A stretch of 62,664 nucleotides of DNA, filler included, from Asterionella formosa (taxonomy: Eukaryota): the NCBI GenBank assembly GCA_002256025.1. It is 6 parts of 6 records of this genome, joined end to end, with 100 filler letters (N's around TTAATTAATTAA, not from the genome) between each part and the next. Parts side by side here need not be neighbours in the genome. Positions count along the whole stretch, not along the records: positions 1 to 27,692 come from NKIB01001430.1; 5 more parts are not named here. One strand, 5' to 3'. The notes under the pieces were generated by a model, which was given only the letters and a program-made list of their open reading frames with translations, had not been told where the DNA came from and searched no databases. Shown here piece by piece: positions 1-4,912 of the stretch. Position 1 is the stretch's first letter; every line of letters begins with the position of its first letter. The position numbers and the translations under genes were made by a program.

Positions 1-431
1 ACACCAAGGAGTATTATGGTGCCATTCGTTGTACGACAAACTATTGCTGATATCCTGTATTGTAGAGACCTTGATGCTTATTCGTTGCAATAATGCATGA
101 AATGGGAGAATACCAATACAACTGTATATTACTGTACTCCATGTAGTACGGAGTTCAGTACGGTATGATGCATTCATCTATCCGCCCTCTCTTTTTCCGT
201 TCTTCTCATCGCCCCCCAACACTATCTGTCTCCTCTCCAGCAAATTTGCTGTCGCGAGTCCCAAACGTGGCCGACGAGCTCAATCGTTTCAAGCAGCAAT
301 AGCAATAGCAACAGCAACAGCCATTTGCCATCATTCTGCACTATAGTCCCATTTGAAAGACCACACTCCATCCAATTTACAAAACCAAAACCAACGAGAG
401 AGTCGGCATTTTCATTTCATTTCGTTTCATC

Positions 432-3320
432 ATGGGAAAGAATCAAGCGGCCAAGGGGACGAAAATGTCCATTGGAGAATTCATGCAAGGAACTCCATCC
501 ACAGAACGAGACCATTTACCCAGTGCGCCTAGAGAAAGAGCGTAAGTGTCTACTCGTTTATCTTCTTTGTTTGTTTGTGTGTGTCTACAGTGCAAATAGA
601 AAGTCATTCGATGCAAACTGAAAACTGTACTTGGAACTTTTGTCAACCCAACACATGACAGCAGTCACCCCTGTATGTTGTGCTTTTCCACATGCTCTCA
701 CATGCCGTATTTATATTTATACATATACACATCCCATTCACAAACAGTGCGGACGACGATGGAAGTTTCAAGCGGAAGCCACGTCGCGAAGATGATACGA
801 ATTATGAACCTAGTCGAAGTGAGAATGATTCTGCTTGGCGACGAGGTGGGGCTACTCCAGGAGACTCATCATTAGGAACTAGCAATCGAGGAGGTGACGA
901 TCGTCGAGGATTTGATCGTGGTGGCAGTGGCAGTGGCAGTGGCGGTGATAGAGGTGGCTTTGGAGGAGGAAGCAGTCGAGGTGGATTCGACCGTGATTCC
1001 AGAAGTGGCGGTGGATACGATCGTGGTGGTGATAGAGGAAGTGGATTTGATCGTCCTTCGGGAAGTGACAGGGGTGGATATGATCGTCCATCTGGAAGTG
1101 ACAGGGGTGGATTTGATCGTCCATCTGGAAGTGACAGGGGTGGATTTGATCGTCCTTCGGGAGGTGACAGGGGTGGATATGATCGTCCTTCTGGAAGTGA
1201 CAGGAGTGGATTTGATCGTCCTTCGGGAAGTGACAGGGGTGGATATGATCGTCCTTCTGGAAGTGACAGGGGTGGATTTGATCGACCTTCTGGAGGTGAA
1301 CGAGGAGGAGGCGGCGCTGCACCACCCGCTGCCGAGCGACCCAAGCTCCAGCTTCGAGGCCGTACCGGTCCTCCAGTTCCTTCAAACAAGCCAGAACTGG
1401 AAGCCATTAAGCCGAAGTCTAATCCATTTGGCGATGCCTCTGCCGTGGATACTGCATCTAAATTGGCCGAATTGGAGATTACCAAAGGACCCAAAGAAGA
1501 ATCTATTGAACCGCCACCACCACCAGCAGCTAAAAAAGTCAATGAACCTAATGAACCTGCCAACGAAGAAACGAAGGATGTACAAGCCTCACCTCCCGAA
1601 GATTTAGAATCCAAGGAAGAATTGAAGGAATCCAAGGAAGAATCAAAGGAATCCAAAGAAGAATCAAAGGAATCCAAAGAACGGCGTGAACGGAAGCGAC
1701 GTGAACCAGAAGTGATCAATTCCAGAGCCGCAGCCTTTGAAAGTGCGCCGGGTGTCAAGCGTGATGTAAGTGCGACTATTTTGGGTTTAGATATAACAAA
1801 TGGCTTTTGCATATAGTATTTCTTCAAGAACTAACTATGTATGTCAAAAGTCTAACAACCGCAGAGATGGAGGAAACAATAGCAACGTCAATCGGGGTCC
1901 ACCCCCAGTTGTCAACAAGCGGTTCGAAGCACTCGCGGACGAAGAAAAGGAGCGCAGTGATCGCCGTCGTGAGGATAGAGGCCCACCTCAACCTACCAAT
2001 TCTCGATTCGCTCAAGCGGCAGAAGCGGATCGCTCGTTTACTCGCAACAACAACGATGGTCCTCCTCCACTGACGACCAATTCTCGTTTTGCTTTAGCAG
2101 CTGACGCGGAACGTTCTGATTCGTTTCGTGATCGACGTGGACCACCTCCAGTGCAGAACTCAAGATTCGCAGCAGCAGCTGCTGCAGCAGATGCGGAGCG
2201 GAACGAGGACGGTGGTGGTCGTCGACATGATGACCGAGGAGGACCACCCCCAGTGCAAAACTCAAGATTCTCTGCTGCTGCCGATCGGGATCGAAGTGAA
2301 AATAACTTTGGTAGAAATGACGATCGTGGTCCGCCACTGGTACAAAATTCTAGGTTCGCAGCAGCTGTGGCAGCAGATGAGGACTATGTTCCAGAAGAGC
2401 GTCGTAGAGAACAAGGTCGAGGGGGTGGTGGCGAAGAACGTGACGGTGGTAGATTCAGTGGAGACGATCGACGAGGACGATTTGATGATGACCGACGCGG
2501 CGGCTTTGATGATCGCAGAGGCAACAACAGTGACCGTTACGAAAACCCCAAGGACAACAATAACGAGCAAGAACTTGCCCCTCGTCGTAATGTTGACGAT
2601 TTGCTCAAGCCCAAGGCTCCTCCTGCCATGGACAACATGTTTGTCCCTCCACCATCTGTCAAGGCACACGCAGATAATATGTTTATTCCGCCAACGAAAA
2701 CAAAGGCCGAAAAGGATCCGGAAGCGGAGAAAAAAGCTAAGAAAGAAATGGCGGCGATGAAGGCAGCAGAAGAAGAAGCGAAGGCGGCCAGACTTGCCAA
2801 GATTGCTTCAGCCGAGAGCGAGTTACTGCATGAGTTTGCTTCAGGCGGTAAGTTGGGAGACGACCTGACGCAATGGTGCGCAAATCAAGGTGTCGCTTTA
2901 CCATCCGTGGAGAAACTGCTCTTTCATTTGCTTTCTGAGAAGGAAATGAAGAATCCAGATCCTTCCTGTACTTGGGGGAGCCCACAAAAGTATGGTGCCG
3001 CTCTCTTGTCGTTGGTTGAGGATGATGTTCATGGTCAGATGCAAGTCCTTTGGGGTATTCAAAAGTACTGTGATACATTAGGATTCCCCAAACTGAATGA
3101 TGAGTATTTGGTCCAATCCATGTTTCGATCAATGTACCAGTATGATCTTGCCAGTGGTGATGCCTTTGCAGAATGGAAGGAGGACGAAAGCGATGACCAC
3201 ATGAATGGCAAGCTGAAGGCTGTGATTCAGACTGTGGATTGGTTCTTATGGCTCGAAGAAGATGACGAAGATGAGGACGATGAAGAAGGCGATGAAGAAG
3301 TCGATGAAGAGGAAGAGTAG
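432..3320 (+). CDS. eIF4B-like translation factor fused to a C-terminal W2 (eIF4G/DAP5-type) domain; exons 432-541, 748-1765, 1851-3320
   Basis: ATG at 432 reads MGKNQAAKGTKMSIGEF...LPSAPRER, resembling the eIF4B N-terminus. Donors GTAAGT at 542 and 1766 and acceptors CAG at 747 and AAG at 1850 (CTAAC at 1831) join ORFs 680..1816 and 1800..3320 in frame. The product has D/R/Y/G-rich repeats and the eIF4B motif ERPKLQL..RT...SNPFG.A..VDT. The C-terminus FPKL...F..MY..D....AF.EWKED...GK.KAV.Q...W..WLEE plus an acidic tail is W2-like. Confidence 0.8.
1043..1306 (+). repeat. Coding tandem repeat, 8 x 33 bp (G[F/Y]DRPSG[S/G]DRG), DRYG-like region
   Basis: Unit ggatttgatcgtccttcgggaagtgacaggggt repeats with period 33, visible directly in DNA and protein. 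Confidence 0.95.
1607..1681 (+). repeat. Coding tandem repeat, ~3.5 x 21 bp (ESKEE[L/S]K)
   Basis: gaatccaa(g/a)gaagaat... repeats with period 21. Confidence 0.9.
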
Positions 3321-4912
3321 TCTATCAGAGGGGGCTATCATTTGTCGAGTTGGTATAAGCATATTAATGAATGAATTCTTGTGATGTTAGTGTGTATTTT
3401 GAATTGAAACCTGCAGAAACAAAATTTGCAAAGTAGCTAACTACGCTTGCAGCAAAACATTCATACCTTCATTTTGCAGGTAACACCTTCAGGCTCTATA
3501 CTTCTGGTAGCCTAGCCTAGGCTACCTTACACTCTGATCAGAGTCAACTCAAGCATAATGGCAACACTGATGGTGCTGACAAAAAATAAACATTTAACAT
3601 TTTAAGTTATTTCCAGAAATATCAATTTCTCAGAGGTCAGAAATCGCATGAGATACTGGTGGCCAGTATGTGGAAATTGCTATTGACAAAAACCAGCATC
3701 ACTGACCACATGCTATACAACAAGCTTACAGTTTAGAATGTAGTGATATGTAATAGCCACACTTAACTTTTGAATTTGCTACTGTGCAAGGTTTTTCTTT
3801 GTAGATTGTACATTGTTGTGGTACACGAGGAAATCATGAATGTGCCATGATTTTTGACCATCAGAGCTCATAAAAGCAACTTTCAAAGCAGTGAAAATTG
3901 TGTTTCAACATGGGGAAACCCTTCTTAGAGCATCCTCATGTCAGATGATTTCAGCTGTCTTGCATATTATCAAATCCTGTGTCAATTTTTTTCATCAACT
4001 CACACATTATTCTTTGCAACAAACAAAGGTGCAATGATGCAAGCATGAGGTCCGCAATGGATACATTTCTGGTAGAATTAATTTGCTATTTTTGTTTGCA
4101 CATCAAGCAAAAACTCACACTGATCTGCTATTATTATCTACATTCACTTGAAATTTCATCATGCCTTTTGTGAACAGGAGCATTCTTATATAAACAGTAG
4201 TGATTTTTATTGCTGCTAAAATAAAGAGCTCCGTGAAACAGTTGAATGGTGCGTGAGTTTGTGTTGTTGTCTGTAATGGCTTTGTACTTTTATTTTATTT
4301 GTTTGAGGCTGCTCCTTGCTGAAATCTACTCATATTACTCACGTAATTTGCAGATGGGTACTACCAGTAGGTACCTATTCTTATTAATACGTGGGAGTTT
4401 GGAACAAAAGGTACACCATACAATTCTGGATCAAAATAGCAAATACCGACAAATGATCTAAGTCTGAGACATAATTCAATCGTCAGCCACACTGTGGCGC
4501 TGACCATGTCCTGATTTGAATCATTCTTTATATAGAAGAAAACAAGCCTACCGGGTGAGGAGTATCATGGGTGTATGGATATAATCATAGTGGAGGCTTA
4601 CGAGATGTACAGTTCGTACGATACTGCTTGAAAGCCCTTGAATATCTTATGTAGGTGGTGTATCACATGCAGCTAGACTCCATACCTGTATCTGGTATGC
4701 CGGTAATTGATTTGATATACCGGTATATGTATGTACCGCGGGTACTATGTATTCCACGTGCGTGCATTTACCGGTACACATCACGACACCATGAGAGCAC
4801 AAATCATCATCGCCTTAGCTTAAATTCTTCCCTTGAATCCTGTTTGTTCAGATATTCGCAACATCTGCGTTGCTTGTTCTTATAGTGTACAGAGACCCAT
4901 AACCCCACACGC

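Follow-up and report, generated by a model that had tools for sequence, protein, structure and literature searches.

In animals and fungi, the RRM is a defining domain of eIF4B, a factor that stimulates the helicase eIF4A and furthers assembly of the 48S complex. The DRYG region of this factor serves self-association and the binding of eIF3, and a stretch common to eIF4B and eIF4H has been implicated in contacting eIF4A. Plant eIF4B has no RRM and is built in the order K-x-S/T-L-x-E-F, LPxGPR, a Gly-rich region and an RPxLxL / NPFG module. We know of no W2 domain in plant eIF4B, nor of one in plant eIF4G. To our knowledge, eIF4B is the least conserved of the core initiation factors. The textbook ligand of W2 domains is the basic K-box segment of eIF2-beta, and the W2 protein 5MP/BZW mimics eIF5. 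The domain owes its name to two conserved tryptophans, and eIF4G, DAP5, eIF5, eIF2B-epsilon and BZW are the only carriers given in the review sections consulted (PMC9177959). According to excerpts of two further articles, eIF4B is unrecognised in dinoflagellates, apicomplexans and kinetoplastids, and its sequence is hard to recognise across distant eukaryotes (PMC6027434, PMC12787238).

The window, i.e., the whole stretch of Asterionella formosa DNA analysed here (62,664 nucleotides), contains on record NKIB01001430.1 a plus-strand gene (432..3320) in which an eIF4B-type module and a W2 domain are encoded together. The protein has in common with animal and fungal eIF4B (human, PDB 6fec chain u) and with eIF4H an RPKLxL(K/R)xR(T/S)...FGxAxxVDT module beside Arg/Gly/Asp-rich repeats. 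It differs from animal and fungal eIF4B by the lack of an RRM, by repeats of the type DRGG[FY]DRPSGS in place of DRYG, and by additional NSRF repeats and the W2 domain. Like plant eIF4B (PF06273, 'Plant specific eukaryotic initiation factor 4B'), with its RRM-less arrangement described above, the protein is mostly disordered; no W2 domain was found on the PF06273-type matches of this analysis. The best sequence and fold matches of the C-terminus are the W2 domains of DAP5/eIF4G2 and eIF4G1 (PDB 3d3m, 3l6a, 1ug3), including both Trp boxes (AFxxWKED, WxxWLE), but neither MIF4G nor MA3 precedes the W2 domain in A. formosa. The W2 domains of eIF5, eIF2B-epsilon and BZW/5MP belong to the same fold class, and the C-terminal domains of eIF2B-epsilon and eIF5 were lower-ranking Foldseek and HMM matches; the GAP, NTase-like or bZIP parts of these proteins are absent from the A. 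formosa protein. No description of such an initiation scaffold was known to the first-pass annotation of the sequence, and none of the combination of eIF4B module and W2 domain was found in the literature searched or in the W2 list of the 2022 review, as far as the consulted sections go (PMC9177959).

Results and discussion

Gene structure and transcript

Three exons yield a CDS of 2598 nt for 865 aa, with a single terminal stop (Table 1). Both GT..AG joints are present in the RNA contigs of four out of four runs, which came from four studies. The first-pass annotation had proposed one spliced gene, to be checked by RNA reads over 1765/1851; this joint is among those observed, and single RNA contigs from three studies, which carry both the eIF4B module and the W2 domain, connect 1255-1765 with 1851-3275/3384. 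The protein with eIF4B module and W2 domain is the product of one spliced mRNA. Breaks between the contigs are confined to ~1070-1255, where exon 2 carries a 33-nt tandem repeat and its ORF stays open throughout. These gaps in contig cover (1070-1255; upstream of 283) were not counted as evidence either way. An in-frame 6-nt insertion variant was present behind 1301 in run X7, and a search for an upstream ATG in 283-431 yielded none.

Table 1 Features of the A. formosa gene (positions count along the window)
Feature	Position	Strand	Remarks
5' UTR	283..431	+	RNA contigs start at 283 (run X3) and 294 (run X1)
Exon 1	432..541	+	ATG at 432; Lys-rich N-terminus; KMSIGEF aa 11-17, LPSAPR aa 29-34
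Intron 1	542..747	+	206 nt, GTAAGT..CAG, GC 0.38; joint 541/748 in RNA contigs
Exon 2	748..1765	+	Disordered Gly/Arg/Ser/Asp-rich region, eIF4B core module, acidic Lys/Glu/Ser stretch, degenerate NSRA unit
DRGG[FY]DRPSGS-coding tandem repeat	1041..1299	+	33-nt unit, 7.8 copies, 91% matches
eIF4B core module	1301..1513	+	ERPKLQLRGRT, 20-aa linker, NPFGDASAVDTASKLAE; profile A2
Intron 2	1766..1850	+	85 nt, GTAAGT..AAG, GC 0.31; joint 1765/1851 in RNA contigs
Exon 3	1851..3320	+	Stop codon 3318-3320 included
NSRF repeats	1890..2390	+	Six copies, ~23-aa unit [DR]RGPPPVxNSRFAAAAxADR; alignment A6
Lys/Glu/Ala-rich long helix	2718..2840	+	Exon-3 aa 290-330, leads into HEAT domain; predicted structure
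W2 / HEAT-3 domain	2856..3269	+	Exon-3 aa 336-473, pLDDT mostly >90
Pfam W2 match	3036-3284	+	Exon-3 aa 396-478; PF02020
Acidic Asp/Glu tail	3270..3317	+	After second conserved Trp box (DWFLWLEEDDEDEDD...); 12-nt repeat at 3254-3310
3' UTR	3321..3384	+	Poly(A) addition site 3384: loose end of 24 A in run X2; contigs of X2 and X3 end there

Because the RNA joints fix both introns, a hidden RRM exon has no room in this gene. Intron 1, situated where we assume canonical eIF4B to carry its RRM, has stops in all three frames and thus conceals no exon. The Pfam models for RRM, MIF4G, MA3 and eIF-4B had no match on any exon at E<=1, in agreement with the earlier statement that the protein has no recognisable RRM and neither MIF4G nor MA3. 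Among 23 full-length relatives scanned at E<=0.5, none contained an RRM, a MIF4G or a PF06273 match. No Pfam match to the bZIP-like region or the central HEAT part of BZW/5MP was obtained for the A. formosa protein and these 23 relatives. MA3 appeared once among the 23, below the threshold (P0120, Pfam E 0.022); a PDB sequence search gave no confirmation and the candidate was rejected. In the predicted structures, everything upstream of exon-3 aa 290 is of low confidence or disordered, leaving the W2 domain as the only folded part.

N-terminal half and eIF4B core module

More than half of the protein consists of low-complexity Arg/Gly/Asp/Ser sequence. Exon 2 is predicted to be disordered (mean pLDDT 47.2, no strands), and the core module, with RPKLQL at aa 234 and NPFGDASAVDT at aa 262, is its only better-predicted part (pLDDT 61-74). 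Profile A2 covers this RPKLxL...NPFGxAxAVDT module with 74 columns from 12 sequences, the A. formosa protein included. Searched against the PDB (177,635 sequences, E<=10), it found one match, human eIF4B, with an E-value of 9.8e-10, at a position which presumably falls just after the DRYG region. With hhalign, A2 reached a probability of 97.8% against P0163, an RRM-bearing eIF4B (PDB 6fec_u, E 5.4e-27). These matches bear out the initial reading of the RPKL/NPFG...VDT motif as eIF4B-type. The full-length family profile A1, run against 5.8 billion sequences, recovered three RRM-type eIF4B-like proteins (E 6.6e-6, 6e-5 and 4.8e-3) among at least seven matches, which were drawn from 8000 scored candidates crowded by low-complexity words.

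Searches with individual sequences gave weaker signals. Among Pfam families, the module segments reached PF06273 (plant eIF-4B) and no other, in two of the 12 segments and below the cut-off (best E 5.1e-4); this best match, in P0096, spans profile positions 230-276 of 502 and scores 19.6 bits, the cut-off being 28. The A. formosa module segment and the whole exon 2 had no PF06273 match in Pfam. Pairwise BLAST of A. formosa exon 2 with the eIF4B-like proteins P0163 and P0165 gave no significant alignment; the best E, with P0163, was 1.1, and the collinear ERPKLQL...VDT alignment with P0163 had an E of 8.6. In the same comparisons, the relatives P0123 and P0008 reached 0.063 and 0.001. Exon 2 alone produced chance-level matches among the PDB sequences (best E 0.29). 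In the ESM Atlas its best score was 0.83 (recognition 1725), and a score of 0.82 was given to a cluster of which 13% of the members carry PF06273, a weak lead. Profile A1 against the PDB (E<=1) retrieved W2 proteins and chance matches without any eIF4B, and profile A3 of the N-terminal motifs retrieved no PDB sequence at all (E<=10). Because neither of them found eIF4B, the eIF4B homology rests on the module of ~70 residues. As judged from the sequence profiles, the likeness of this RPKL...VDT module to eIF4B exceeds chance.

Two further eIF4B features were named in the first-pass annotation. KMSIGEF and LPSAPR, described there as the eIF4B N-terminal signature, are present, are conserved within the family and resemble what we take to be the pattern of eIF4B N-termini (K-x-S-L-x-(D/E)-F, LP(S/T)xPR), but the blank result of A3 leaves the signature without statistical support. 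The repeat called 'DRYG-like' exists as an Arg/Gly/Asp/Ser repeat with seven DR[GS]G[FY]D units, but its likeness to the DRYG region is compositional only and non-significant in pairwise BLAST (E>=1.1). The NSRF repeats of exon 3 had no match in Pfam, and profile A6 none in the PDB. Short helices are predicted in some of the copies, whose number varies from 4 to 11 across the relatives.

W2 domain

Sequence comparison and structure prediction identify the C-terminus as a true W2/HEAT-3 domain with the W2 domain of DAP5/eIF4G2 as closest counterpart, and the original assignment to the DAP5/eIF4G type stands. PF02020 matched with 45.2 bits over a gathering cut-off of 30 (E 1e-11) along profile positions 2-79 of 79. 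The A. formosa W2 region found in the PDB at E<=0.01 only DAP5 (1.7e-6) and eIF4G1 (2e-3). In the search with profile A1, DAP5 (4.7e-21) and eIF4G1 (9e-13) ranked ahead of the more distant eIF2B-epsilon (1.9e-6) and eIF5 (8e-4), and BZW was absent from the PDB matches of both queries. The AlphaFold model has a pLDDT >90 across exon-3 aa ~320-470; its all-helical HEAT-repeat fold, as predicted, superposes on solved W2 domains. The top Foldseek match was the DAP5 W2 domain 3d3m_B (E 1.9e-5, TM-score on target 0.74, rmsd 2.9 A, 163 columns).

Both Trp boxes are present as AEW(K)ED and DWFLWLE. Of 42 aligned relatives, 37 have W and 5 have Y at the position of the first tryptophan; the second tryptophan lies in the family consensus WFxWLEE. 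For DAP5, residue E862 is required for eIF2-beta binding, according to an excerpt of a review (PMC9945437). If the E862 numbering is as assumed, the aligned residue is Ser in A. formosa and D/E in 25 of the 42 aligned relatives.

Relatives and distribution

Nine long relatives (863-1023 aa) all have W2 as the only domain in precomputed Pfam and an identical order of motifs; W2 scored above the Pfam cut-off in 19 of 23 scanned relatives. The A2 module was found in 32 of 288 collected proteins. Relatives with the same architecture, for which a search across the stramenopiles had been suggested at the outset, were obtained as named full-length proteins from diatoms, Triparma, Vaucheria and Aureoumbra and as a partial record from Laminaria, with the A2 module present in the Vaucheria, Aureoumbra and Triparma proteins and in the Laminaria record. 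The transcript-derived relative P0123, marked 'type:complete', holds eIF4B module and W2 domain in one ORF. Some diatom relatives (P0001-P0004) miss the NPFG...VDT half of the module. A possible orthologue is the Phaeodactylum protein named 'eIF4F (Phatr3_J44383)', for which a diel phosphosite at Ser-9 is reported (PMC7408324). All source names seen for the relatives were 'hypothetical' or a W2 label.

By its named records, the family spans at least five ochrophyte classes. The initial term 'lineage-specific' is to be read as covering these classes, not one genome. Oomycete members are at present a lead only; similarly, for the short forms P0105, P0109, P0090, P0094 and P0119, the nearest ESM Atlas neighbours are oomycete and diatom W2 clusters. 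A fungal assignment of P0158, based on the taxid in its MMETSP header, was dropped as implausible.

Proposed function and alternative explanations

The A. formosa protein is probably the diatom member of an ochrophyte, possibly stramenopile-wide, family of initiation proteins: an RRM-less eIF4B homologue with a C-terminal W2 domain of the DAP5/eIF4G type. In such a factor, the disordered Arg/Gly-rich half would bind RNA non-specifically and, together with the RPKLxL...NPFGxAxAVDT module, taken as the stretch common to eIF4B and eIF4H, may act as a cofactor of eIF4A at the 5' leader of mRNAs. Through its W2 domain, the factor would attach to a segment, basic and disordered, in some other component of the initiation apparatus. 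Candidate ligands are the K-boxes of eIF2-beta, with eIF1A, eIF3c or a Mnk-like kinase as alternatives. Docking of this kind would connect mRNA unwinding with the 43S complex. The bridge from eIF3/40S to eIF2 envisaged in the first-pass annotation stays hypothetical: its DRYG-to-eIF3 step draws on a likeness in composition, and its W2-to-eIF2-beta step is putative. A further-reaching version, which we put forward tentatively and hold to be the less likely one, takes the family as the stramenopile eIF4B that annotation has missed. On that view, the RRM would belong to certain lineages and not to eIF4B in general, in line with its absence from plant eIF4B. The W2 domain, carried by eIF4G and DAP5 in animals, would have moved onto the partner of eIF4G, and the helicase cofactor itself would grip eIF2-beta or another component of the 43S complex. 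If true, the coupling of mRNA unwinding to the ternary complex would be rewired, and the family would be a lead in the search for the eIF4B 'missing' from other SAR lineages.

A regulator could have a similar appearance. A competitor of the 5MP/BZW or DAP5 kind would use the W2 domain to sequester eIF2/eIF3c or to recruit a kinase, with the eIF4B stretch as a short linear tether to eIF4A or mRNA. Such a role agrees with the W2 domain as the only part predicted to fold, with an eIF4B similarity limited to ~70 residues, with a variation of the NSRF copy number between species (4-11) as expected of a modular adaptor, and with the existence of W2-only regulators, BZW being listed among the W2 proteins in the consulted review sections (PMC9177959). 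The W2 domain, however, is nearer to DAP5/eIF4G than to eIF5, BZW is not among the PDB matches, and bZIP-like or MIF4G/MA3-like regions are lacking. The spread over ochrophyte classes fits a core factor, as does an eIF4B that, in the available excerpts, is unrecognised in dinoflagellates, apicomplexans and kinetoplastids (PMC6027434, PMC12787238). We regard a regulator as rather unlikely. Still less likely is an RGG-type protein of RNA granules or mRNPs that acts mainly outside initiation, in storage, decay or transport, and has co-opted the W2 domain as a general protein-protein module. The large low-complexity share, predicted to be disordered, and the NSRF repeats with their lack of Pfam and PDB matches would suit it, but both recognisable parts point to initiation factors: eIF4B is the sole PDB match of A2, and the W2 region matched initiation factors only.

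A false fusion, produced by reading two adjacent genes as one or by an assembly error, is highly improbable. The RNA contigs stop within 1070-1255 and none of them covers the gene from end to end, but this gap coincides with the 33-nt tandem repeat of exon 2, in an ORF that runs on without interruption, contigs from three studies join the module to the W2 domain across intron 2, and P0123 presents both parts in one complete, transcript-derived ORF.

Conclusions

As a conserved RRM-less protein with eIF4B module and W2 domain, the family presents a concrete eIF4B candidate for diatoms, kelps and their relatives, and a combination of the A2 and W2 profiles can be used to search other protists. 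For the W2 domain, it adds a sixth protein context to eIF4G, DAP5, eIF5, eIF2B-epsilon and BZW, the carriers named in the consulted review sections (PMC9177959). The architecture, as read from sequence, may offer a testable prediction of the way in which mRNA unwinding is linked to the 43S complex in these ecologically dominant algae.

Gene structure and transcripts

A three-exon gene was identified by eye and from the ORF listing at 432-3320 on the plus strand. Scripted splicing of the exons yielded 2598 nt coding for 865 aa with one stop, at the terminus, and exon GC was 0.51 vs. 0.38 and 0.31 in the introns. No upstream ATG was present within 283-431. RNA evidence came from assembled contigs of four runs (X1, X2, X3, X7) from four studies. 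All four runs contained the joints 541/748 and 1765/1851, each with GT..AG intron ends. X1, X2 and X3 contigs covered 1255-1765 and continued from 1851 to 3275 or 3384, where a run of A terminated the X2 contig. Contig breaks were confined to about 1070-1255, within a 33-nt tandem repeat inside one open exon; thus the 1765/1851 junction and the single spliced gene of the first-pass annotation were confirmed. One X3 contig of low depth (3.9, vs. 744 for spliced transcripts) runs over intron 1 (547-749) and would fit either unspliced precursor or carried-over DNA. Downstream of the gene lie two very long ORFs.

Coordinates of the gene parts and of the downstream ORFs
Feature	Position	Strand	Remark
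Exon 1	432-541	+	ORF listing
Intron 1	542-747	+	ORF listing; GC 0.38
Exon 2	748-1765	+	ORF listing
Intron 2	1766-1850	+	ORF listing; GC 0.31
Exon 3	1851-3320	+	ORF listing
ORF, 1384 aa	4949-9103	+	no Pfam match at E<=1e-5
ORF, 1884 aa	9472-15126	+	VPS13 adaptor-binding domain match, E 6e-7

The C-terminal W2 domain

Pfam identified W2 (PF02020) at exon-3 aa 396-478 (E 1e-11, 45.2 bits, cut-off 30) and no other family on any exon at E<=1. PDB matches of the last 206 aa at E<=0.01 were confined to DAP5/eIF4G2 (E 1.7e-6 and 7.1e-6) and eIF4G1 (E 2e-3), and the broad full-length family profile A1 ranked DAP5 (4.7e-21) before eIF4G1 (9e-13), eIF2B-epsilon (1.9e-6) and eIF5 (8e-4). Modelled by AlphaFold from 43 aligned sequences, exon 3 was all helical at aa 320-470 (pLDDT mostly >90), with a long helix ahead of this region at aa 290-330 and pLDDT <60 elsewhere. 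The top Foldseek match of this model was the DAP5 W2 domain 3d3m_B (E 1.9e-5, TM-score on target 0.74, rmsd 2.9 A), followed by eIF2B-epsilon, the eIF5 C-terminal domain and eIF4GI. Domain match, PDB ranking and fold therefore justify the label 'DAP5/eIF4G-type W2'. The W2 proteins named in PMC9177959 are eIF4G, DAP5, eIF5, eIF2B-epsilon and BZW. According to a passage of the review PMC9945437, binding of eIF2-beta needs DAP5 E862, where eIF4G1 has Lys. If residue 897 is taken as the end of the 168-residue 3d3m chain, the window protein has Ser in this column, and of 42 aligned relatives 25 have an acidic residue (D 16, E 9) and 7 have S; these residues are suggestive of eIF2-beta binding for the family, and the Ser would carry no weight either way for the window protein. 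A short coding tandem repeat at 3254-3310, with a 12-nt unit in 4.8 copies, lies in the acidic tail.

The eIF4B module and the predicted disordered half

All eIF4B motifs quoted in the first-pass annotation were found in the spliced protein, and they fared differently. The assignment of RPKLQL...NPFGDASAVDT to eIF4B is strongly supported: the 74-column profile A2, aligning the module of the window with the same stretch of 11 relatives, had one match among 177,635 distinct PDB sequences at E<=10, human eIF4B (6fec_u, chain residues 342-410, E 9.8e-10). By hhalign, A2 matched P0163 with 97.8% probability, an RRM-bearing eIF4B according to its PDB match to 6fec_u (E 5.4e-27) across RRM and module, and A1 retrieved three RRM-type eIF4B-like proteins from a set of 5.8 billion. 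The plant eIF-4B model was the sole Pfam family matched by module segments (2 of 12 at E<=10); the segment of relative P0096 reached E 5.1e-4 and 19.6 bits, under the cut-off of 28, and the window's own segment gave no match at E<=10. Other results speak against eIF4B. The BLAST alignment of exon 2 and P0163 was not significant, A1 did not reach eIF4B in the PDB, profile A3 of the N-terminal motifs (KMSIGEF / LPSAPR) matched no PDB sequence, and the 'DRYG-like' repeat DRGG[FY]DRPSGS resembles eIF4B in composition only. Diatom relatives P0001-P0004 keep RPRLxLKxRT and lack NPFG...VDT, so that this half-motif may be dispensable in some diatoms.

Exon 2 was predicted by AlphaFold to be disordered (mean pLDDT 47.2, no strands), its best-predicted part being the eIF4B module (pLDDT 61-74). 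This prediction and the RNA joints exclude a cryptic RRM, MIF4G or MA3 exon. A coding tandem repeat occupies 1041-1299 (33-nt unit, 7.8 copies), and in run X7 six nucleotides (GAGGAG) are inserted in frame behind 1301. Since contigs break in this repeat and X7 has the insertion, the Gly/Arg region seems to differ in length between strains. At 1607-1681, a 21-nt unit in 3.6 copies codes for ESKEESK units. Exon 3 starts with six [DR]RGPPPVxNSRFAAAAxADR units (1890-2390), with a degenerate seventh in exon 2 and 4-11 units among relatives. Neither Pfam nor a PDB search with their alignment, A6, gave a match; short helices were predicted in some units of the exon-3 model, and one might guess at a repeated docking peptide.

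Relatives and distribution

Searched exhaustively with phmmer, 1.84 billion representatives gave 436 proteins at E<=1e-3, of which 175 reached E<=1e-10. Searching for longer proteins with exon 3 gave nine of 863-1023 aa, all with the same order of parts and W2 alone in precomputed Pfam. Shorter relatives (450-680 aa) miss most NSRF repeats and retain the Lys-rich N-terminus, LPxxP, RGG region, RPRLxL, W2 and often NPFG..VDT. Among 23 scanned relatives, W2 passed the cut-off in 19, fell just under it in three and was unmatched in one; none matched RRM, MIF4G or PF06273. The A2 HMM located the module in 32 of 288 collected proteins. Named full-length relatives belong to the diatoms Thalassiosira exigua, Cyclotella cryptica, Mayamaea, Epithemia and Nitzschia, and beyond diatoms to Triparma, Vaucheria litorea and Aureoumbra lagunensis; one record, from Laminaria digitata, is marked as partial. 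In an Atlas look-up, a short form lay next to a cluster of oomycete proteins named 'W2 domain-containing protein', a lead only towards oomycete members. The short forms P0105, P0109, P0090, P0094 and P0119 share ADKWD..F, DPRFAGKFG and a C-terminal EEIDAPxxT tail, all absent from diatom forms. In one of the 23 scanned relatives, P0120 (939 aa), a sub-threshold MA3 (aa 632-713, E 0.022) lies between the eIF4B-like half and W2; a PDB sequence search gave no confirmation.

Gene calls limited to the last exon account for many of the 350-600 aa database entries. Relatives are named 'hypothetical protein', 'unnamed protein product', 'W2 domain-containing protein' or by a Pfam label; eIF4B was absent from the source names seen. 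The open-access full-text literature yielded in the passages retrieved neither an eIF4B-like protein with W2 nor an eIF4B named in stramenopiles; supplementary annotation tables could name this family. Passages of PMC3352336 describe plant eIF4G without HEAT-3/W2 and eIF4G of Ectocarpus and T. pseudonana as like eIFiso4G in some motifs. As far as the retrieved text goes, eIF4B is unrecognised in dinoflagellates (PMC6027434, PMC12787238) and likewise in apicomplexans and kinetoplastids (PMC6027434), and PMC3359775, PMC3850090 and PMC12758896 hold nothing specific on such a protein.

Interpretation

The domain map of eIF4B includes a DRYG region in contact with eIF3, and plant eIF4B is not known to carry an RRM. 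In animal and fungal eIF4B the RRM is a defining domain, which the window protein lacks; it is therefore filed as 'eIF4B-like, W2-bearing'. Membership in eIF4G/DAP5 or BZW was ruled out because the upstream HEAT domains were absent on testing. A regulatory role through W2, in the manner of 5MP or DAP5, is unlikely. Even less probable is an RGG protein outside initiation, a reading that the Gly/Arg region allows and that both homologies speak against. An artefactual fusion has a negligible chance.

With gene, mRNA, homologies and conservation established, the protein is rather likely an RRM-less eIF4B homologue that gained an eIF4G/DAP5-type W2 and is conserved across ochrophytes. The observation of the first-pass annotation, an RRM-less eIF4B-like protein fused to this W2, stands, and its interpretation is supported in part. 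In such a homologue, the disordered half would serve as eIF4A cofactor and RNA binder, and W2 would bind a basic stretch in a 43S component or a kinase. The MA3 of P0120, if real, would point to the C-terminal half of eIF4G/DAP5 (MA3+W2) as the W2 donor.
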